Below, in pieces: positions 154 to 60,467 of a stretch of 64,000 bases of DNA. Source of the stretch: Candidatus Altimarinota bacterium (lineage in GTDB: Bacteria; Patescibacteriota; Gracilibacteria; UBA1369; GCA-2718715); assembly GCA_041242255.1 (NCBI GenBank), contig JBESAV010000001.1, forward strand, positions 576,001-640,000. Reading direction: 5' to 3'. Within the stretch, counting starts at the first letter, position 1. Every line of letters begins with the position of its first letter. The notes beneath the pieces were generated by a model. That model made no database searches. It was not told the origin of the DNA and was given only the letters and a program-made list of their open reading frames with translations. Position numbers and translations under genes: made by a program.

Positions 154-1815
154 TTAAGTTAGCTTAATATGGTTAGCTTTAGCAATGATAGAGCAAATAT
201 TATCCATTTTATCTGAAACATCATACAGATCTTTAAGGTTATCCTTTGTAAAATATTCTACAAAATTCTTAGCATATTTAATTTTATTTGCTTTTAATTT
301 TTCCCCTTCTCCTTTCGATATTTTATCCAAAGTATTAGCTATTGGGGTAAATCGACGAGGCTGTTGGCTAATCAGCTTATCGTAAAAAGATTCGAGTGAT
401 TCTTTAGGAATGTAGTTTTCTGTTTCCTTACCATGAGTAATCCACAGATAAAAATTGTTTTCTTTTTTATATGCTTCTTTAATACTATTAACTCTTTTTT
501 TGAGAGGGTCATTAGTGTTTTTTTTATCGCTATCGCATATAACTATAGAATTTCGATTTGCTTTTAAAATCGAAAGTTTTTCGTCAGGTATTTCTTCATC
601 AACTCCGTAATGTGCAAGTAATGATCGAGCTGTAAATAAAAATTGATAATGAATATTCTCTATTAATTTACCATCAGAGAAAATATCTAACATTTTTTTA
701 TAGTAAATTCTATCGGATGGACCCTCAACCCATATAACTGCATTTGACTGTAATATATCACTAGCCTTTGCTCCAATATCATCTATCACTAAAGAGTGAC
801 TACTATAGTTTAATACATTTGATAGGATTGTCTTTGAACCTTCTTTATATAAATGAATTAGATTTGTATTTTTATCTCCAGAAAAGAAGTTAATAGTCAC
901 AGGTGAATGTGTTGTTAAAATGAAAGTACAACCTTGTTCACTTAGTTTTTTTATGTAATGCAGAATATTTCTCTCCAGGTTAGGATGAGTATTGTTTTCT
1001 AATTCCTCCAATAAAAAAATACAGTTCGTAATCTTCTTTTTTGTAATATCTGGACCTAAAATTGTCACTACCAATAAAAATAAAACAGTTTTTATTCCGC
1101 TACCTGTATTTGAAATGGGTATAAATTCGCCATTTTCTGTTTCCAGTCCTATTTCCCATAAATCAGTACCTTTTTGATTAAAAACCCTTATGTCAGTATA
1201 TTTAGAATCTGGCGAAACAATTTTATTTAATTCTTTTAAAAGAGTTTCTGTTACCAGTTTATACCTTGCACTCCCATATACTTCTTCCTGCAGGTACAAC
1301 CTTATAATATTTGTTATGCCAGTTCCGTTTGATTTGATTGTAAGTTTATTAAAATTTGGACCACTAACAGAACTAATAAAAATGTTATTTTTTTGTTCGC
1401 TTATGATGTTTCGGTCAGCATCAATTCTAAAACCTATTAAATTGTTTAGCTTATTATCTAATTTATTTAAGATTTTTTTTTGCTCATTATTCGTAAGTTC
1501 ATCAAATTTTATATTATTACCTCCATTATATAATTGAGATTTAACATAGTAGTTAACTGGTATAATATCATTCACAGAATTAAGTACTTTAACTGATTCA
1601 GAATCAATATCATCTTTTTGTATTGTTAAATAGAGTTTAGCCCCATTCGTCCTAATTTCTTTATCTAACAACTGTTCTATTGCATCTAGATAGGTGCTTT
1701 TACCTACATTATTTTTACCGATAATCAGATTTATAGGCAAAATACTTTGAATATTTTCTTCTTCAAAGTTTAACCCTTTGTATTTTTTAACTCCAATAGA
1801 AATTTGTAACGACAT
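154..1815 (-). CDS. OLD-family ATP-dependent endonuclease (ABC-type ATPase + TOPRIM)
   Basis: Walker A GKNNVGKS, Walker B LLEELENNTHP, TTHS motif, TOPRIM VIWVEGPSD and DSD. Confidence 0.85.
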   Translation of the reverse strand: MSLQISIGVKKYKGLNFEEENIQSILPINLIIGKNNVGKSTYLDAIEQLLDKEIRTNGAKLYLTIQKDDIDSESVKVLNSVNDIIPVNYYVKSQLYNGGNNIKFDELTNNEQKKILNKLDNKLNNLIGFRIDADRNIISEQKNNIFISSVSGPNFNKLTIKSNGTGITNIIRLYLQEEVYGSARYKLVTETLLKELNKIVSPDSKYTDIRVFNQKGTDLWEIGLETENGEFIPISNTGSGIKTVLFLLVVTILGPDITKKKITNCIFLLEELENNTHPNLERNILHYIKKLSEQGCTFILTTHSPVTINFFSGDKNTNLIHLYKEGSKTILSNVLNYSSHSLVIDDIGAKASDILQSNAVIWVEGPSDRIYYKKMLDIFSDGKLIENIHYQFLFTARSLLAHYGVDEEIPDEKLSILKANRNSIVICDSDKKNTNDPLKKRVNSIKEAYKKENNFYLWITHGKETENYIPKESLESFYDKLISQQPRRFTPIANTLDKISKGEGEKLKANKIKYAKNFVEYFTKDNLKDLYDVSDKMDNICSIIAKANHIKLT

Positions 1816-1832
1816 AATTGAGTTTTATATTG

Positions 1833-1861
1833 ATGACAGAATACCATTTTCCTGCTAGATT
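1833..1861 (+). promoter_or_regulatory. sigma70-type promoter for the structured leader and ORF 2030
   Basis: ATGACA-N17-TAGATT with an extended -10 TG; the predicted start is near 1868, where the conserved motif begins. Confidence 0.55.
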
Positions 1862-1867
1862 ATAAAT

Positions 1868-1996
1868 GTCGCACAACTAGGAATTTTAAGCCACATAAGG
1901 TGCTCCCTTGTTTATATGAACAAAGGTGGGCATCTAGCCATATAGGCATACCTTTGTGGTTACCTAGTTGGGCGACCTAGGTGCCCTCTTTTGGAA
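1868..1996 (+). ncRNA. Conserved structured leader RNA, copy 1
   Basis: Homologous to 59022-59151; nested stems show compensatory changes and G-U pairs. Confidence 0.75.
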
Positions 1997-2029: not shown

Positions 2030-3334
2030 ATGTCACAACCTGTATTTACAAGTAAGTATTTTGATATCTACAAAGATAGGATAGAGATCAAAATGTTCTT
2101 AAATAAAGACACTATTTTTATTTCCTCTATACACAGTATGAGAAAAAGACTCGGTGGGATTAAAGTTCATACCAGTGGAAAAGATTATATTCTCCCTCAT
2201 AAAAATCCTGCAAAAGTAATTGAAGTAATATCAAAGCTAAAAAATGGCGAGGAAGTTATAATCGAAGAGAAAAAGAAAGTAAAAACTAAGAAGGTTCAAG
2301 AAGCTACAAATCAAGAAAGTAACCCAACAAAAGAAGATAATACAGTCTGGTACAAGACATGGTGGTACATGTGTATTCTTTTTTTCTTTACGATAGTATT
2401 ATGGTTTATTACCATACCAGTTTATACGTATTTGGCTTACTCAAATAAAGATAAAGAAGACGGTCCACACTACAAGAAAGTTTTAACTGCATTGGTAGTA
2501 TTTTCTATTTTAATAGTTCTACCTGTTAGTTGTAGTCAATCATTACAAGAAGATGAAGCTATGTCTTCGATTGAAGTTATGATACAAGAAGGACGACTAG
2601 ATGATGCGGCTGATAGTATGATTAGTACTCAGTATAAATACTCAGATAGATACAAGGCATTAGCTAAAGAACTTAATTACGCTGCACCATCATATGCAAA
2701 GGTTTTATTGCTATCTCTTACTGATGACCAGATTAAAGATTTAGAGTCTGGTACATTAGCTATAAATAAATCAAGTTACAGCACTATAAATGATAGATTG
2801 AAAGAGAACCTTAATACACTTTTACCTGATTTAGAGGAGATACAGAAAGAACATGATCAACTTGCCTTACTTAATAAATTAGGTGAAATAGAGTACAGTG
2901 TTATCCAAAAAGATGAATACAAAAATCATGATGTATATGTACTAGAAGTTCCTAATGTTATAAACCAAACAGTCCTGGAGTCCTTTGCTAGAAGCTTCGA
3001 GGAAAACCTTTGTGAAAGAGATTGTTTCATCAATCTATATAGTATTGAAGATGCATATTGGACCAGAGAAAAGAAAAGCGATTTAGGAAGTGCTTTTATG
3101 GATGAGTCAGCTGATTTGGTTATATCAGGGCAAATATCACAAGAAGAAGTTTTAATAAGAAATAGAAGGTATCTTCTGGAGTTAGATGAAGAATACTTAG
3201 AATATATAGCAACAAACCACATAGGAAGGTTGGAGCTAGATTTTAGTGGAGGGCCATCTATTTACTATCCATATCCAATAATATCTGATCTTGACTTACT
3301 CGATGAAAGAAGACAGGAATTAGAGAACTTATAA
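2030..3334 (+). CDS. Hypothetical membrane protein (possible N-terminal PH-like domain, 2 TM segments)
   Basis: 434-aa ORF with hydrophobic segments at about aa 107-137 and 150-168. Confidence 0.7.
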   Translation: MSQPVFTSKYFDIYKDRIEIKMFLNKDTIFISSIHSMRKRLGGIKVHTSGKDYILPHKNPAKVIEVISKLKNGEEVIIEEKKKVKTKKVQEATNQESNPTKEDNTVWYKTWWYMCILFFFTIVLWFITIPVYTYLAYSNKDKEDGPHYKKVLTALVVFSILIVLPVSCSQSLQEDEAMSSIEVMIQEGRLDDAADSMISTQYKYSDRYKALAKELNYAAPSYAKVLLLSLTDDQIKDLESGTLAINKSSYSTINDRLKENLNTLLPDLEEIQKEHDQLALLNKLGEIEYSVIQKDEYKNHDVYVLEVPNVINQTVLESFARSFEENLCERDCFINLYSIEDAYWTREKKSDLGSAFMDESADLVISGQISQEEVLIRNRRYLLELDEEYLEYIATNHIGRLELDFSGGPSIYYPYPIISDLDLLDERRQELENL

Positions 3335-3764: not shown

Positions 3765-5309
3765 ATGAAATGGGTAATTTATGTTAGAAAGTCTAGTGAG
3801 GACGCAAACAAACAGGTAAGGTCCCTCAAAGACCAAATCAAGGTATGCCAAGAACTAGCAAAAAGGGAAGGCTACAATGTTGTAGAGGTATTCCAAGAGA
3901 TAAAGTCTGCTAAAAAATCGGGTAATAGACCAGAGTTCAACAGAATGTTAGATGGTTTAAGGCAGAACAAATATCAAGGAATACTATCATGGGCACCCGA
4001 TAGACTTTCTAGAAACATGAAGGAAGCAGGGGAGATCATCGATATGCTCGACAATGAAGTTATCCTCGATCTAGACTTTGCAGCACACGCATTCGTTAAT
4101 GATTATAATGGGCTAATGACGTTAGGTATTTCCTTTGTGATATCAAAGCAATATTCTGATAGGTTAGCCCATAACATCTCCAGAGGTAACAAACAAAAAC
4201 TAAAAGAAGGTAAGCATTTAGGTCGATATGTACACGGGTATATAGCTGATGATGTTACACAGCATTACCAGATAGATGAACGTATTGCAGAGAATGGAAA
4301 GACATTTTATGAGCTGATAAAAGAAGGATTCCAAATGCGACTAAAAGGTAACTCCTTAGCAACCATCACCAAATACATCAATGATAATGGGTACTATAGA
4401 GAGACTAAGCAAAGCAAAACTATCCAAAAAATGACACAGGGAAAACTAAGCAATATGTTTAAGGACCCAATATACTATGGAGAGATTCATACATATGAAG
4501 AACCGATAGACCTTGTAGAGATACATTGCTTTTTACCAATGATCACAAAAGAGGAATACGAGATGCTACAAGACTATAAACCAACCGGTATCAGTTCACA
4601 TACACATAATTGGCCATTCATAGAGCTAGTTAAATGTGGAGACTGTGATTGCAATATGCGTGCAGGTAAATCTACATCAGGGACAGGGCAGAAGTATTTG
4701 TATTACTGGTGTGAAAATAAAGAGTGTGGAGATAAAAGAAAGAAACAAGGCAAGACAAAGTTCCCTACTATCAGAGCAAAGGTTGTTATAGAAGCCTTAC
4801 AAAATGCTCTAGCAGATCTAAATCTAGATAAAGCTATATACAAGAACTATGGAACACAATACGCAGAGGAGGTCCATAAGTACAAAACAAATATTGCCAC
4901 ACAAAAGAGAGCAGCTAGAAGAGCCCTTAATAACTTCGAGAAGAAAAAAGAAGAGCTAGAGTTCAAAAAGATACGTGATGGGCATTCATGGTCCAAATCA
5001 GAGCAAGCTAGATACAATAAAGAGATAAAGTTCTACAACAAAAAGATCAACACCTTAACTAGGAATATTGATGATCTAGAAAAATCTATGCCAAAAGAAG
5101 TAGACCTAAAAAGTTTCTTGAACTCGTTGAATATGGCTTCTACAAGGTTTCCTCGATATGATTTAGAGACGATGGACTCATTAGCCAAAAATGTGTTCTT
5201 GAACTTAGTTGTTAAGGACGGAAAAGTAGCATCAATAAGCTATAAAGAGCCCTTTGCAAGTATGCCAAAAACGGCTAAATCCAGACTTGGTGCACCAGAG
5301 AGGACTTGA
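3765..5309 (+). CDS. Large serine recombinase (resolvase + recombinase + Zn ribbon + coiled coil)
   Basis: YVRKSS catalytic motif, DRLSRN, CGDC...YYWC zinc ribbon; the last codons overlap the tRNA-Leu antisense strand. Confidence 0.93.
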   Translation: MKWVIYVRKSSEDANKQVRSLKDQIKVCQELAKREGYNVVEVFQEIKSAKKSGNRPEFNRMLDGLRQNKYQGILSWAPDRLSRNMKEAGEIIDMLDNEVILDLDFAAHAFVNDYNGLMTLGISFVISKQYSDRLAHNISRGNKQKLKEGKHLGRYVHGYIADDVTQHYQIDERIAENGKTFYELIKEGFQMRLKGNSLATITKYINDNGYYRETKQSKTIQKMTQGKLSNMFKDPIYYGEIHTYEEPIDLVEIHCFLPMITKEEYEMLQDYKPTGISSHTHNWPFIELVKCGDCDCNMRAGKSTSGTGQKYLYYWCENKECGDKRKKQGKTKFPTIRAKVVIEALQNALADLNLDKAIYKNYGTQYAEEVHKYKTNIATQKRAARRALNNFEKKKEELEFKKIRDGHSWSKSEQARYNKEIKFYNKKINTLTRNIDDLEKSMPKEVDLKSFLNSLNMASTRFPRYDLETMDSLAKNVFLNLVVKDGKVASISYKEPFASMPKTAKSRLGAPERT

Positions 5310-5374
5310 ACCTCCACCCAGCTAAGCCGGACTAGCCCCTCAAGCTAGCGCGTCTACCATTCCGCCACTGGTGC
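5288..5374 (-). tRNA. tRNA-Leu(GAG)
   Basis: Cloverleaf GCACCAG/CTGGTGC, anticodon arm CTAGC-TTGAGGG-GCTAG, long variable arm, encoded CCA. Confidence 0.97.
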
Positions 5375-54387: not shown

Positions 54388-57300
54388 ATGTTTTACACAA
54401 AACAAATCAAAAAAGGCTTAATGCTCTTTTTGTTTTTGGGAGTTCTTTCGCTTACTTCCATAGCAAGTGCCGCCACAATCACAGTTAATACCGATGCCGA
54501 TAACACCACAGCAGGTGATGGTGTATGTACATTAAGAGAGGCGATAAATAATTCTAATGGTGATGTAGACACCACTTCAAGCGATTGTACACCGGGAGCA
54601 GGCGCAGACACTATTGTATTTGATCTCCCAGGAGCAACTAGAATAACAGTAGCCACTGAATTACCAGCTATTACAGACACAGTTGATATTGTAGGTCAAT
54701 CTCAAGGAGCCTCTTCATGTCTAGATAAAAACACTTTAGAAATGGAGCTCACTACTAGTCAGCAGGGAATATCAGGTTTAATCTTTGACTCTGGTTCAAA
54801 TGGGAGTTCACTCAGTGGGTTTTACATTCATAATTTTACAGCTGCATCTTTTTCAGGTTTCGGAGCAGTCGAATTAAACACAGAGGTACAAGTTTCATGT
54901 AATGTTTTCGGTATAGACGCTACCGGATCTGTTTCAGAAAATATGTATGGGATAATTGTTGAAGGAGCAAATTCTGTAATCGGAGGGCCAAATCCAGAAG
55001 ATGGAAATGTAATTTCAGGTAGTGCTATAGATGGAGTCAGAATTTCTGGTGCTTCTACAACAAATGTAACCGTATCGAATAACTATATTGGTACTAACAT
55101 AGCTGGATCTTCTGAAATACCCAATCAAAGTCAAGGTGTAAGAACAGTTTTAAGTTCTCAGGCAGAGATAGGACCCAACAATGTTATCTCAGGTAACAAC
55201 TCATCAGGGATAAGAATTACTTCACCAAATGTAAATGTATTTGGGAATATTGTTGGTCTTAATGCAGCTGGAGATGCAGCTATACCAAACAGCACTGGAA
55301 TATTCTCAACTGCAGGTGACTTAATTATAGGAGGTGGTACTGAAGCTGATAGGAATATTATCTCTGGTAATGATGCGTCTGGTATATTTATTGACACTTC
55401 AGATTCTAACATCCAAATCCAAGGTAATTATATAGGAGTTAGTCAAGATGGCTCAGCTTCTATAAGTAATGGCGGTGATGGAGTTAACATCGAAGCTATT
55501 GCCCCAATTTTAATTGGAGGTGATACCCTTGGACAGGGTAATGTTATTTCAGGGAATTCCGGTAATGGTATTCATACTCAAAACAATAGTAATGGTGCAG
55601 AAATTAAAGGGAATATAATAGGTTTAAATGCTGCTGGTGATACTGCAGTTCCTAATTTATTTGACGGGATACTTGGTAGAGCTAACAACCTAGTTATAGG
55701 TGGAGACACTATTGCCGAAAGAAATATTATTTCAGGAAATGGTAGCGATGGTATTGAAAGTTCATTTTTCTACTCTGGTCATACAATCCAAGGTAATTAT
55801 ATAGGAGTTAGTCAAGATGGCTCTTCAGATATTGGTAATGGAAGTACTGGTATCACAGCAACAGATAGCCAAATTGGAGGTCTCAATCCTGGTGAAGGAA
55901 ACATAATTTCAGGAAATGGTGATGTAGGTCTAGACATTTCATCAGGTACGATTCAAGGTAATTTAGTTGGACTAAACGCATCTGGAACCTCTGCTATACC
56001 AAACGACACTGGTGGAATATCTGCATTTGGAACAGCAGTTGAAGAAAATATAATCTCAGGAAACACAGGTGTAGGTTTGGAGCTTGGAGGTGACAATGCA
56101 ACTATATTTGGTAATTACATTGGAACAAGTTCAGATGGTACATTTGCAGTACCCAACACATCTCATGGAGTAGTTTTATCAGGTGATTCTATTCAGGTAG
56201 GTAGTACTGTCTCAGGTGAAGAAAATATAATCTCAGGAAACGGAGGTTCAGGTATAGTTTTAGATGGTACCAACATTGATATAATAGGTAATCTGATCGG
56301 TGTTTCAATCACTGAAGACGCAACAGGAAACGAGGAGTCTGGTATACAGGTTATACAGCAGTCGGAACAAGTATTTGATGGTGACGGATTTGTTACCGAA
56401 TTTTCTCCATCAAATAACATCACTATCGGTGGATTAACTTCTGACCACTCTAATACAATATCCGCAAATAGTATTGCAGGAATTTTAGTAGATGATTCAA
56501 ACACTAATATTTCAATTTTAGGAAATAATATCGGAACTGATAGTTTAGGTAACGTAGTCCCAGGTGACTTGGTAAATGATGCATTAGGTAATGGGCAATT
56601 CGCTTCAGCAGGAGAAGATTTCGGAGGTATCATTGCTAGATCTTCTTCAAGTGTATCAATAGGTAACGCAGACGGTTCAGGAGCAAATGTAATAGCTGGT
56701 AATACTGGTCCTGGAATCTTAGTTTCGCAAAATCTAACTCTTGCCGAATCAACAGTTACAATATTATCTAATTCAATATTTAGTAATTCTGGTCTTGGGA
56801 TCGACTTAGCAAATGACAGTGACGGTGACGGATTCTCAGAGTTAGAACAGGATGCCACATTAAACGACGCTGGCGATGTAGATACTGGTGCTAACTCACT
56901 ACAAAACTTTATAGAATTAACAGCTAAAACCGACAACGGTGCCAACTACACTGTAGACTATACTTTGGATACAATCTCAGGTGACTATCTTGTTCAGTTT
57001 TACGAAAGTTCACAAGCAGATCCAAGTAATTATGGAGAAGGTGAAACTTTATTAACTTCAGAAAGCATTACTCATACAGGTGGTGGTTCTGAGTCTTTCA
57101 CTGCAACTTTCTCAGTTACTGAACCAACTACATTAGTAGCAACTGTAACTCAAGACCTAGGTGGAGGATCATACGGAGCGACTTCAGAGTTCAGCTCAAA
57201 TGAAATTATAGTAGAGGAACCAGCTCCTGCTCCAAGCGGAGGAGGAAGCAATGGTTCAGGTGTTGATGCAAGCAATACAAATCCATTTGGAGGAGAAGAC

Positions 57301-57822
57301 CAAGGTTCATCTGAGCCTGACCAAGAAACTCAACCAGACGTAGCCGACAATTTCTTACCAGATGAATGTAATTACGAAAGAGCCTTAAAAGAAATAGAAA
57401 AGTTCGACGGATTTGATCAAGAAATCTCAAGGTACGAAGCTCTTCAATATGTTCTTATCATTAACTGTATTGGACTTGATGAACTTCCACAAAACCCAGC
57501 TGACTATCCTTTCTCAGATATCAATCTAGAAAGCGAAAAACTAGCTAGAGTTTTATATACAGGATACAACAGAGGAATAGTAAAAGGATATCCAGACGGA
57601 ACATTCCGCCCAGCAGATCCAATTAACTACGTTGAGCTTCTCGCTATCAATGCTAGAGCTCAAGGCCTAGCTACTGACTCTCAGGAGGACGGTACAGAGT
57701 GGTATAGCTCATACTTAACTCTTGGTCTAACTATCCGTCTAGCCATCTCAGGAATAGATTATGCAGACCCAATCACAGGTGACACTTTCTACCTAATCAC
57801 TACAACCTTCCTAAACAGCTAA
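54388..57822 (+). CDS. CSLREA-domain beta-helix surface protein with C-terminal SLH-type anchor
   Basis: Signal peptide, CTLREAI, repeated N.ISGN/GN.IG coils, GATSEFS, GIVKGYPDGTFRP. Confidence 0.88.
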   Translation: MFYTKQIKKGLMLFLFLGVLSLTSIASAATITVNTDADNTTAGDGVCTLREAINNSNGDVDTTSSDCTPGAGADTIVFDLPGATRITVATELPAITDTVDIVGQSQGASSCLDKNTLEMELTTSQQGISGLIFDSGSNGSSLSGFYIHNFTAASFSGFGAVELNTEVQVSCNVFGIDATGSVSENMYGIIVEGANSVIGGPNPEDGNVISGSAIDGVRISGASTTNVTVSNNYIGTNIAGSSEIPNQSQGVRTVLSSQAEIGPNNVISGNNSSGIRITSPNVNVFGNIVGLNAAGDAAIPNSTGIFSTAGDLIIGGGTEADRNIISGNDASGIFIDTSDSNIQIQGNYIGVSQDGSASISNGGDGVNIEAIAPILIGGDTLGQGNVISGNSGNGIHTQNNSNGAEIKGNIIGLNAAGDTAVPNLFDGILGRANNLVIGGDTIAERNIISGNGSDGIESSFFYSGHTIQGNYIGVSQDGSSDIGNGSTGITATDSQIGGLNPGEGNIISGNGDVGLDISSGTIQGNLVGLNASGTSAIPNDTGGISAFGTAVEENIISGNTGVGLELGGDNATIFGNYIGTSSDGTFAVPNTSHGVVLSGDSIQVGSTVSGEENIISGNGGSGIVLDGTNIDIIGNLIGVSITEDATGNEESGIQVIQQSEQVFDGDGFVTEFSPSNNITIGGLTSDHSNTISANSIAGILVDDSNTNISILGNNIGTDSLGNVVPGDLVNDALGNGQFASAGEDFGGIIARSSSSVSIGNADGSGANVIAGNTGPGILVSQNLTLAESTVTILSNSIFSNSGLGIDLANDSDGDGFSELEQDATLNDAGDVDTGANSLQNFIELTAKTDNGANYTVDYTLDTISGDYLVQFYESSQADPSNYGEGETLLTSESITHTGGGSESFTATFSVTEPTTLVATVTQDLGGGSYGATSEFSSNEIIVEEPAPAPSGGGSNGSGVDASNTNPFGGEDQGSSEPDQETQPDVADNFLPDECNYERALKEIEKFDGFDQEISRYEALQYVLIINCIGLDELPQNPADYPFSDINLESEKLARVLYTGYNRGIVKGYPDGTFRPADPINYVELLAINARAQGLATDSQEDGTEWYSSYLTLGLTIRLAISGIDYADPITGDTFYLITTTFLNS

Positions 57823-58975: not shown

Positions 58976-59021
58976 CGGATAAAGTAATTGAAAAAAAACA
59001 AGTTGAGTGTATTATTTAAGC

Positions 59022-59151
59022 GTCTCTCAATTAGAATTTATGGCCAAGGGCTCGCTCACTTTTTGTCTGATATGGACAATGGTGGGCACCTAGCCATATC
59101 GGTAGCCCTTCGTGGATTCTGATTGGGAGACCTAGGTGTCCTCTTTTGGAA
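59022..59151 (+). ncRNA. Conserved structured leader RNA, copy 2
   Basis: Homologous to 1868-1996; promoter TTGAAA-N16-TATTAT at 58988-59015. Confidence 0.75.
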
Positions 59152-59174: not shown

Positions 59175-60467
59175 ATGTTTAAGAAAGCTTTATCCAGTAC
59201 AATTGCTCTTATGCTTTTTGCTACTGCAATCCCTGTTCAAGCACAGCAGGCAAATGTGCTTAGTGATATCTCACTAGAATCAGATTATTTCGTATCAGTG
59301 AATCATCTATACGCCAACGGTGTAATTGGCGGTTATCCTGATGGAACCTTTAAGCCAGAGAAAACTATCAGCCGAGCAGAGCTCATGAAGGTTGTAGTTG
59401 AATCAAACACTGACAACATCGATGAAACCCAGTACCAAAATTGTTTCCCTGATGTTAAAGAGGACTGGTACGCAAAATATGTTTGCTATGCCCAAGAACA
59501 AGGTTGGGTGTCAGGTTATCCTGATGGTACATTTCAACCTGCAAATCCAGTAAAGAGAGCAGAGGCAGTTAAAATGATAGTAAACGCCTTTAAACTAGAC
59601 CTAACCTCTACAACAGAACTACCACTTGATGTCCCAGCAGATTCATGGTTTGCTCCTTTTGTAATTGAAGCACAGTCGAGAGGATCACTAGATCTAGTAG
59701 TTGATTCTTTTGGTCCCGCAGAGGATGCAACCAGAGGCTACGTATCAGATATTCTATACAAACTCCTCACTGTTGAAGAAACAGGCCTACAATCCTTCGA
59801 TGAGTACATGATAGAAGGACCTTACTTAGTTACTAGAGTTGTAGACGGAGATACAGTCGACGTCGAAGCAAACGGTGAGACCATGAGACTCAGGTTGATT
59901 GGTGTAGATACACCCGAAACAGTTCATCCCAACAAAGATGTAGAGCTATACGGTCCTGAGGCATCTGCGAAGGTAACAGCTGACTTACTCAATACTTACA
60001 TTCTGCTTGAATCAGACATCACTCAATCGGACAAGGATGTATACGACAGATACTTAAGATACGTTCGCCTGCTAGATGGAACCAATTACAACGAGCAACT
60101 CATTAAAGAGGGTTACGGATTCGAATACACATACGACAACAATCCTTACATTTACAAAGACCGCTTTGACGAGGCAGAGCTATTTGCTAACACAAACGGT
60201 ATCGGACTATGGAATCCTGATTTAGTTGAGGGACAAACCCTGGAAGACCTCATCGAGGAAGAGCCAACAGAGAAAAATGATGAACCAACAACTGACAGCA
60301 ACAGTAATGGTCACGTGTTCTATGTAAGTAGTAAGGCTAGAACTAAATATTACTGTGACACAGACCCATCATGGGAAGATCTCTCGAAGGATAATCTTCT
60401 TAGATACGAATCAGAAGCTGAACTAAAAGCTGATTTTCCGGGTTTAGAGCTTAATCAAGCTTGTTAG
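59175..60467 (+). CDS. SLH-domain + thermonuclease (SNase) surface nuclease
   Basis: Signal peptide from ATG 59175; three SLH repeats; VVDGDT, RLIGVDTPE, DVYDRYLRYV, GLW. Confidence 0.9.
   Translation: MFKKALSSTIALMLFATAIPVQAQQANVLSDISLESDYFVSVNHLYANGVIGGYPDGTFKPEKTISRAELMKVVVESNTDNIDETQYQNCFPDVKEDWYAKYVCYAQEQGWVSGYPDGTFQPANPVKRAEAVKMIVNAFKLDLTSTTELPLDVPADSWFAPFVIEAQSRGSLDLVVDSFGPAEDATRGYVSDILYKLLTVEETGLQSFDEYMIEGPYLVTRVVDGDTVDVEANGETMRLRLIGVDTPETVHPNKDVELYGPEASAKVTADLLNTYILLESDITQSDKDVYDRYLRYVRLLDGTNYNEQLIKEGYGFEYTYDNNPYIYKDRFDEAELFANTNGIGLWNPDLVEGQTLEDLIEEEPTEKNDEPTTDSNSNGHVFYVSSKARTKYYCDTDPSWEDLSKDNLLRYESEAELKADFPGLELNQAC

Follow-up and report, generated by a model that had tools for sequence, protein, structure and literature searches.

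Introduction

Why do two unrelated genes in one bacterial genome follow copies of the same noncoding sequence, and what does that sequence do? The question is raised by a 64,000-nt stretch of DNA from Candidatus Altimarinota bacterium (NCBI GenBank assembly GCA_041242255.1, contig JBESAV010000001.1, positions 576,001 to 640,000 of the forward strand), called the window below. The original prediction, made from the letters of the window, placed two noncoding copies of a switch-like leader RNA at 1868-1996 and 59022-59151, and both are present there. The RNA is probably a conserved, structured 5′ leader of about 125 nt that acts as a conditional intrinsic terminator, riboswitch-like in design, in integrative elements of Patescibacteria. 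Judged from sequence, it represents a new RNA family whose general kind is known: a candidate riboswitch or switch-like attenuator of transcription, unusual both in its design and in where it occurs. The cis-regulatory role that had been proposed gains support from the covariation of the leader, its alternative pairing and its mobile-element context.

Copies of the leader RNA and their models

The 1.0-Mb genome to which the window belongs (G000; other G-numbers are other genomes and L-numbers are loci) holds three copies in all, as found by BLAST and a covariance-model search of the whole genome. A plain MAFFT alignment of the three copies misaligned their 5′ halves, and the RNAalifold consensus on it was wrong; the first covariance model (R1) was therefore seeded from copy 3 alone with its own fold. 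Model R2 was built from 8 sequences and R3 from 51. The copies, their promoter-like sites, helices P1 to P4 and the alternative helix T are located as follows.

1833..1861, + strand, promoter-like site of copy 1: ATGACA, 17 nt, TAGATT, with TG before the -10
1867..1993, + strand, leader RNA copy 1 (G000:C1:577867-577993), full-length covariance-model match with 92.5 bits (R2) and 78.2 bits (R3)
1868..1881, + strand, P1 5′ strand of copy 1, from sequence and fold; P1 pairs covary in the family
1890..1900, + strand, P2 5′ strand of copy 1, read from the sequence, with its partner at 1951-1960; P2 is 96.6% paired in the family
1899..1935, + strand, P3 hairpin of copy 1, from fold and family covariation, with the conserved GGUGGGCAUC within its 3′ strand
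1928..1937, + strand, T 5′ strand (GGGCATCTAG) of copy 1, common to the bases of P3 and P4
1937..1947, + strand, P4 hairpin (GCC-ATATA-GGC) of copy 1, from sequence and family covariation
1963..1976, + strand, P1 3′ strand of copy 1, from sequence and fold; P1 pairs covary in the family
1977..1986, + strand, T 3′ strand (CTAGGTGCCC) of copy 1, adjoining the end of P1
1987..1992, + strand, U-run TCTTTT of copy 1, 3′ of T
58988..59015, + strand, promoter-like site of copy 2: TTGAAA, 16 nt, TATTAT
59021..59148, + strand, leader RNA copy 2 (G000:C1:635021-635148), full-length covariance-model match with 92.0 bits (R2)
59084..59093, + strand, T 5′ strand (GGGCACCTAG) of copy 2
59132..59141, + strand, T 3′ strand (CTAGGTGTCC) of copy 2
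59142..59147, + strand, U-run TCTTTT of copy 2, 3′ of T
G000:C1:86566-86692, outside the window, leader RNA copy 3, found by BLAST and then by the covariance-model search

Over 1868-1996, copies 1 and 2 are identical in 89 of 131 columns of a MAFFT alignment. The 3′ half (1925-1996) is the more similar part, with 59 of 72 columns identical, exactly the figure first counted by hand, against 30 of 59 in the 5′ half. The flanks agree at 17 of 38 columns upstream and 16 of 44 downstream. All three copies fold more stably than expected: copy 1 reaches -49.1 kcal/mol (z -3.8), copy 2 -59.3 kcal/mol (z -5.9) and copy 3 -52.5 kcal/mol (z -7.7), and 0 of 200 shuffles equalled any of them (dinucleotide shuffles for copies 1 and 2). 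The fold of copy 3 is like that of the other two. The pairings that had been named for copy 1, that is P1, P2, P4 and the alternative GGGCATCTAG/CTAGGTGCCC followed by TCTTTT, can all be read in the sequence, as can the copy-2 equivalent of the alternative pairing.

A covarying fold around a three-way junction

The 51-sequence alignment gives a nested structure in which P1 is followed by an internal loop, P2 and a three-way junction that carries a long P3 and a short P4. In this alignment 87.5% of the cells of nested pairs are paired, against 65.7% in column shuffles (0 of 500 as high), and the nested covariation score is 0.638 against 0.236 (again 0 of 500), figures that call for caution on two grounds, namely that the alignment was fitted to the model structure and is biased towards it, and that the sequences are related, so that the shuffle counts are not probabilities. 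The earlier claim that differences between copies preserve pairing holds across the family, as 40 of the 45 nested pairs show changes on both sides. When the partners were slid by 1-3 columns as a control, pairing fell to 35-45%. A set of 33 sequences gives the same picture of the nested structure. Given the size of the effect and the slid controls, we find the predicted nested helices convincing despite the model-fitted alignment.

Sequence is conserved at several places within this structure. GRYGGGC recurs at the 3′ side of P3, AGCCA..U.GGCUA in P4 and UUGGG in the 3′ strand of P1, and the tail has the form C....G.CC.YUUUU.

Helix T and the competition between two folds

The 10 nt directly 3′ of P1 are complementary to GGGNNNNNAG, which comprises the end of the P3 3′ strand, the junction and the start of P4. 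This pairing forms helix T. Since T crosses P1 and P2, it lies outside every covariance model, and the support for it is independent of the models. When the 5′ strand of T is positioned by the aligned GGG, 53 of 56 sequences form 9 or more contiguous pairs and 55 of 56 form 8 or more. In the cross-sequence control, in which the T 5′ strand of one sequence was set against the tail of another, 7.9% of 2960 pairings reach 9 pairs. A looser motif anchor, later replaced by the alignment anchor, had given a weak contrast (mean of 9.5 pairs within a sequence versus 7.8 across sequences). The 10-mers of the T 5′ strand occur in 31 different variants, and the U-run begins 0-2 nt 3′ of T in 54 of 56 sequences. 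The terminator-like alternative proposed for the window is thus a family trait, with GGGNNNNNAG/CUNNNNNCCC covarying in 31 variants and a U-run behind it. Within G000 itself, copy 3 keeps the pairing by a compensatory change (GGGUACGUAG/CUACGUGCCC versus GGGCAUCUAG/CUAGGUGCCC). When T was scored on alignment columns, where several rows are offset by one column, 86.6% of cells were paired against 72.9% in shuffles and 73 cells carried double changes against 21.8, with 0 of 500 shuffles as high; a smaller sequence set was also run.

T is a 10-bp helix (range 8-12) with a mean duplex energy of -17.9 kcal/mol. Like the stem of an intrinsic terminator, it is rich in G+C and stands directly before a U-run. 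A simple terminator scan detected no local hairpin in copy 2 and, in copy 1, just a weak one of 5 bp. The hairpin of copy 1 lies at 1970-1986, where the 3′ strand of P1 (GGGCG) can pair with the end of T 3′ (TGCCC) before the U-run, so that the CCC end has a third possible partner.

The nucleotides of T 5′ are also engaged in the nested fold. There the GGG of positions 1-3 has a YYC stretch in the 5′ strand of P3 as its partner (helix 7, 96.7% paired), positions 5 and 6 are matched with columns of P3 that carry 22 double changes each, and positions 9-10 with the 3′ strand of P4. Two of these positions, 5 and 6, thus covary with two partners. In the minimum-energy fold of an RNA that ends at P1, a mean of 78% of T 5′ nucleotides are paired. 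In these models T and the junction fold are mutually exclusive, as the two states of a riboswitch expression platform are. Forcing T in the nested model costs about 16 kcal/mol, mainly because P1 is then forbidden. If the rest of the RNA is folded freely and the T duplex is added, with pseudoknot and steric penalties left out, the mean is -62.7 kcal/mol; the nested optimum has a mean of -58.2 kcal/mol. This crude sum suggests that both states are of similar stability, within a few kcal/mol.

The crossing of P1 and P2 by T also fits a quite unlikely alternative, in which the RNA folds constitutively into a pseudoknotted functional RNA, such as a self-cleaving ribozyme or a binder of RNA polymerase or of the recombinase. 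T would then be a tertiary helix, the U-run merely the 3′ end, and there would be no switch. T abuts P1, which would allow coaxial stacking of the two; the helices are highly conserved in sequence; and self-cleaving ribozymes are frequent in mobile elements. Yet the nucleotides of T are also paired, with covariation, in P3 and P4, and no Rfam ribozyme family matches. The promoter abuts the 5′ end, which makes 5′ processing unnecessary. Geometry speaks against it as well, since with P1 and P2 both intact alongside T, the full length of the stalk would have to be bridged by a linker of 12 nt. Most likely, T would form together with P1, stacked end to end, while P2 and the bases of P3 and P4 open.

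Position between a promoter and an open reading frame

The RNA occupies the place of a 5′ leader. The promoters predicted ahead of the two copies are present as promoter-like hexamers at 1833-1861 and 58988-59015, and the predicted start codons of their cargo genes lie at 2030 and 59175. At 56 of 57 loci of the family a TANNNT hexamer is present 3-13 nt ahead of the model start (background 21%), and at 39 of 57 so is the full TT[G/C]NNN-N16-18-TANNNT pair (background 3.8%). The distance from the end of the -10 to the first model position is exactly 5 or 6 nt, and P1 is therefore predicted to begin at the 5′ end of the transcript. Downstream, an ATG-started open reading frame (ORF) of at least 40 aa begins within 60 nt at 58 of 58 loci, compared with 20.5% of random positions; for ORFs of at least 80 aa the figures are 54 of 58 and 11.6%. 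This test covered the same strand only, and two of the ORFs are just 41 and 49 aa long. In this respect the RNA resembles a riboswitch, being a covarying structured 5′ leader co-oriented with a gene.

The arrangement of promoter, structured RNA and terminator-like end would also suit a stand-alone small RNA that always ends at T and the U-run and acts in trans like the CI immunity RNA of phage P4, with the T-core variants as specificity groups. We regard this as unlikely, although several points agree with it. The RNA is found in prophage-like and integrative elements, its inner sequence is complementary to one just downstream in 31 variants, and copies 1 and 2 of G000 have cross-compatible T strands. 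The P4 CI RNA of this satellite phage, as outlined in PMC4825925, acts by premature termination through pairing with complementary leader sequences. However, the gap from the U-run to the ATG is 2-51 nt, too short for a promoter of usual length and without apparent room for one, so the downstream genes depend on read-through. In a terminated RNA, T 5′ and T 3′ would be paired with each other and unavailable in trans. Genomes with two copies follow no rule, since the cores are compatible in G126 and incompatible in G062 and G022. Finally, the Rfam C4 model, which covers the C4/CI family, gave no match in the window, in both copies or in 20 related loci. A leader that controls its own downstream gene in cis is the reading that we prefer.

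Canonical hairpin-plus-U terminators number 16 in G000, versus 10.1 ± 2.7 in shuffled sequence. The word TAACC upstream of the ATGs was considered as a part of the motif or as a partner of the P1 3′ strand and was rejected, since it is also concentrated at -12 to -16 upstream of other G000 genes and, by eye, does not track the sequence of P1. With crude ORF starts, it precedes 41 of 820 long ORFs in G000, with 29 of 43 occurrences at -12 to -16 from the ATG, and Shine-Dalgarno-like words (GGAG, GAGG, AGGA) precede just 44 of the 820. TAACC(C) also stands at the corresponding place before many leader-associated genes of other genomes (loci L041-L047). It may be a lineage-specific translation-initiation signal.

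Mobile-element context and downstream genes

The genes around the two copies in the window are as follows.

2030..3334, + strand, downstream gene of copy 1, a 434-aa membrane protein with two hydrophobic segments and without a Pfam family
3765..5309, + strand, large serine recombinase (Resolvase, Recombinase, Zn_ribbon_recom), in the same direction as copy 1
5291..5374, - strand, tRNA-Leu, whose 3′ end overlaps the end of the recombinase gene
59175..60467, + strand, downstream gene of copy 2, a secreted SLH and staphylococcal-nuclease-like (SNase) protein

As first described, the two cargo genes are unrelated. Both copies had also been assigned to tRNA-integrated serine-recombinase elements. 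This stands for copy 1, which adjoins a serine recombinase whose gene overlaps tRNA-Leu. It fails for copy 2, which has tRNAs downstream and no recombinase homolog within 9 kb. The wider link to integrative elements is borne out by the family. The surroundings of 37 loci were scanned up to 9 kb on each side, with all 22 serine-recombinase loci cross-checked, and 34 of the 37 have a recombinase or terminase in that range: a serine recombinase at 22, a tyrosine integrase (Phage_integrase) at 9 and only a phage-type terminase at 3. The three loci without either are copy 2, L102 and the short contig L125. Only 5.9% of G000 lies within 9 kb of such a gene, and two of its three copies adjoin three of the four recombinase genes detected in it. 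Because recombinase, tRNA and terminase contexts recur, we conclude that the RNA is a component of integrative, prophage-like elements.

Two layouts occur. In one, to which copy 1 belongs, the order is RNA (+), cargo, recombinase (+) and tRNA (-). In the other, a tRNA (+) and a recombinase (-) lie upstream, and the RNA (+) reads away from both into the cargo. At four loci of other classes (three of the five distant members described below, and L146) the start codon of a serine recombinase lies 8-16 nt 3′ of the RNA itself.

The genes directly downstream are varied. Among the first 32 loci they encode SLH proteins (7), a tRNA_anti-like OB fold (4), N6_N4 DNA methylases (3), an N6_Mtase/MmeI-type enzyme (1), SNase (3), Excalibur (2), VRR_NUC (1), DUF4352 (1) and many small zinc-ribbon or membrane proteins. 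By PHROGs, four of the downstream products are Sie-like (superinfection exclusion) and others are nucleases or methyltransferases. At 25 further loci, shared N-termini suggest that a zinc-ribbon and transmembrane family is the commonest downstream product. This family has a nearly invariant N-terminus (CPKC...AKKCKHC.ADLRNWFVRHKI) and one membrane helix, and is found at L010, L015, L023, L030, L048, L056, L077, L084, L087, L088 and L093. Its members differ in their outer domains, one of which is a tRNA_anti-like OB fold, and some of them match the 'Sie-like' family of PHROGs.

Other gene groups recur near the RNA. At seven loci (L101, L108, L111, L112, L114, L116 and L129) a four-gene block converges on the RNA-driven gene. 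It consists of a terminase large subunit (Terminase_6C), a small HTH protein, an N6_N4 DNA methylase and a fusion of ParB_N and methylase, and it resembles the packaging end of a small prophage or satellite. Another recurrent family, unannotated and about 180-200 aa long, is encoded near the recombinase at L106, L115, L119, L120, L130 and L133, and directly upstream of the RNA in L130 and L133; the L130 member has no Pfam match. This family is a candidate for a regulator of the element or a directionality factor.

The proximity of recombinases and tRNA genes, and the fact that in DNA every helix is an inverted repeat, could suggest that the element works as DNA, namely as an inverted-repeat recombination or protein-binding site or as a single-stranded structure like integron attC. 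This is highly improbable. G-U pairs, which are formed on the + strand only, are frequent (at single pairs, CG 27 and UG 24; UG 26, UA 18 and CG 7). A promoter and a U-run bracket the element, which keeps one orientation to the next gene at 58 of 58 loci. Compared with the nearest tRNA region (± 60 nt) at 25 loci, the RNA shares or complements words of at most 5-11 nt, a distribution equal to that of cross-locus controls. The last result likewise gives no support to a guide-RNA role for the recombinase. Around the tRNA-Leu region of the window, no direct att repeats of at least 13 nt were found within 80 kb; serine recombinases need none. The element is better read as transcribed RNA.

Two neighbouring genes in the window are of interest. 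Divergent from copy 1, at 154-1815 (-), lies a gene for a 553-aa AAA_15/AAA_21 ATPase (AbiEii/OLD-like P-loop protein), which may be a defence gene of the copy-1 island. Just upstream of the copy-2 region, at 54388-57822 (+), a gene encodes a protein of 1144 aa in which a right-handed beta-helix is combined with an SLH domain. As this protein adjoins, the SLH-nuclease of copy 2 is one among several SLH surface proteins encoded locally.

Proposed mechanism

Transcription would start at the first nucleotide of P1, and the nascent RNA would fold into the P1-P2 stalk under the three-way junction of P3 and P4. The 10 nt to follow, T 3′, are an exact complement of T 5′, which consists of the P3 3′ strand and the base of P4. 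Formation of T would dismantle the junction and leave a 10-bp G+C-rich helix abutting the U-run, an intrinsic terminator about 20 nt before the start codon. If the junction fold were held, it would act as the antiterminator, and RNA polymerase would read into the downstream gene. The gene gated in this way would be a superinfection-exclusion-like membrane protein, a secreted nuclease, a DNA methylase or the recombinase of the element itself. From the sequence we infer that T terminates transcription and that an effector decides the fold by setting the balance between the two states. The junction fold comes first in the order of synthesis, and the default state may therefore be read-through.

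A small molecule is a tentative choice of effector, and a protein or RNA encoded by the element or the host is an equally tentative one. In either case the RNA probably switches genes of the element, including the integration enzyme, on and off. A bolder version is possible but doubtful: a new riboswitch class, with a new effector that might report host state or infection, would gate the recombinase together with lysogenic-conversion and defence genes, so that one leader RNA would decide both excision and host protection. The 31 variants of the T core could add element-specific, immunity-like cross-talk.

Several observations weigh against a conditional, riboswitch-like terminator. Sequence is strongly conserved inside the helices of P1 and the junction (GUCGC.CAA/UUGGGCGAC, GGYGGGC and AGCCA..U.GGCUA), which would also fit a protein-binding or catalytic RNA. 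The lowest part of P3 (helix 6) is paired in only 62.8% of cells, and part of the competition therefore rests on the invariant GGG, which covariation is unable to cover. T is atypical as a terminator. Its strands are about 37-50 nt apart, where intrinsic terminators have a short loop of about 3-8 nt; its loop is structured; and the U-run is short (4-6 U, often after one or two other bases). The downstream genes share a theme of mobile-element cargo and do not point to one metabolite, as the gene associations of a riboswitch would. They suggest no pathway from which a ligand could be proposed, which weakens the small-molecule version.

The motif offers a well-supported and testable RNA family with a clear alternative-pairing design, placed where mobile elements of the Candidate Phyla Radiation (CPR) decide the expression of integrase, exclusion, nuclease and methylase genes. 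With a small-molecule effector, the motif would represent a new class of riboswitch and a rare example of a recombinase under riboswitch control. With an RNA or protein effector, it would represent a new system of immunity or attenuation in prophage-like CPR elements. Either way, the covariance model offers a practical means of detecting integrative elements in CPR genomes.

Comparison with known systems

The HMP-PP (thiS) riboswitch, with its terminator-embedded aptamer, is the nearest system by architecture as outlined in PMC6478431. Transcriptional riboswitches and attenuators share with the present RNA a structured, covarying 5′ leader, a strand with two alternative places (in the sensor fold or in a helix that precedes a U-run), and an ORF directly 3′. 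Unlike them, the present RNA has the 5′ strand of its terminator in the core of a three-way junction, a 3′ strand that abuts P1 and a 'loop' of about 40-50 nt. It also lacks an Rfam match and precedes genes of mobile elements rather than those of a metabolic pathway. Compared with canonical Rho-independent terminators, T has the same G+C-rich helix with a GGG/CCC base and a U-run within 0-2 nt, whereas its loop is structured and about 40-50 nt long (not 3-8 nt) and its 5′ strand is already taken up in a different conserved fold.

The P4 CI and P1/P7 c4 antisense immunity RNAs are likewise leader RNAs of mobile elements, and their premature termination requires an inner sequence to pair with its complement in the same leader (for P4, PMC4825925). 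In the present family, in contrast, both partners lie in one compact RNA and are able to pair in cis, and the hosts are Patescibacteria.

The bridge and seek RNAs of IS110/IS1111 elements are structured non-coding RNAs directly upstream of the recombinase gene, at the element end, and their recombinases are of the DEDD type. The present RNA can likewise be a structured RNA directly upstream of a recombinase gene. It differs in that the enzymes are serine or tyrosine recombinases, the variable 5-nt core pairs within the RNA, and complementarity to the tRNA region does not exceed that of the cross-controls.

Novelty and distribution of the family

The statement that the RNA belongs to no known family agrees with all searches made. 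Rfam 15 at the gathering score found only five tRNAs in the whole window. For both copies at E<=10 it gave only chance-level scores of 12-15 bits to snoRNA, miRNA and lncRNA models, and for 20 related loci it gave no matches. Literature searches on structured and regulatory RNAs in Patescibacteria/CPR and Peregrinibacteria yielded no paper on the motif or on such RNAs in this lineage. The main text of the paper that describes 224 motifs (Weinberg 2017, PMC5737381) does not mention Peregrinibacteria or a recombinase; its supplementary motif list, which lay outside this comparison, may bear on novelty. In viral contigs of IMG/VR the motif was not found with three patterns in all, of which the main pattern and a P1/T pattern gave 0 loci. 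The third, a short P1/T pattern, matched 11 contigs (L135-L145), which were rejected: none fits R3, they read as coding sequence, and most carry largely the same sequence.

A covariance-model search of Patescibacteria recovered the family in further genomes. R1 found 5 further genomes among 150 relatives. R2 gave matches in 26 of 151 genomes of the same order (one judged false), across 12 of the 19 sampled families (f1 counted); in family f6 the count was 9 of 28. Outside the order, a sample of 151 genomes of the class contained one genome only, G185, with two copies. The match judged false (L033 in G071, 22 bits) lacks the core. L147 in G435, which is only 59 nt long and has no T, was dropped, as was a reverse-strand match on copy 3 that is false or doubtful. 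L034 in G003 (20 bits) was kept as a probable member, with its own T and U-run.

In a sample of 150 other genomes from across the phylum, R3 had five weak hits (27-34 bits). Each of the five has a promoter-like site and a T helix (8-14 bp) of its own, as well as a U-run. They were accepted as distant members because the promoter, T and the U-run are not scored as pairs by the model. In the small class to which two of the distant-member genomes belong, 4 of 16 genomes matched and 3 were accepted. An International Union of Pure and Applied Chemistry (IUPAC) pattern run over all GTDB species genomes matched 21 loci, of which 15 were confirmed by the model; over a metagenome collection it matched 27, of which 21 were confirmed. 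The 15 confirmed loci in GTDB genomes include records labelled Candidatus Peribacteria (9), Peregrinibacteria (3), Gracilibacteria (1) and, for a 5-kb contig, Pseudobdellovibrionaceae (1). The motif is rare and patchy, with one to three copies per genome. Other classes carry 'GUUGACCCA' variants of it.

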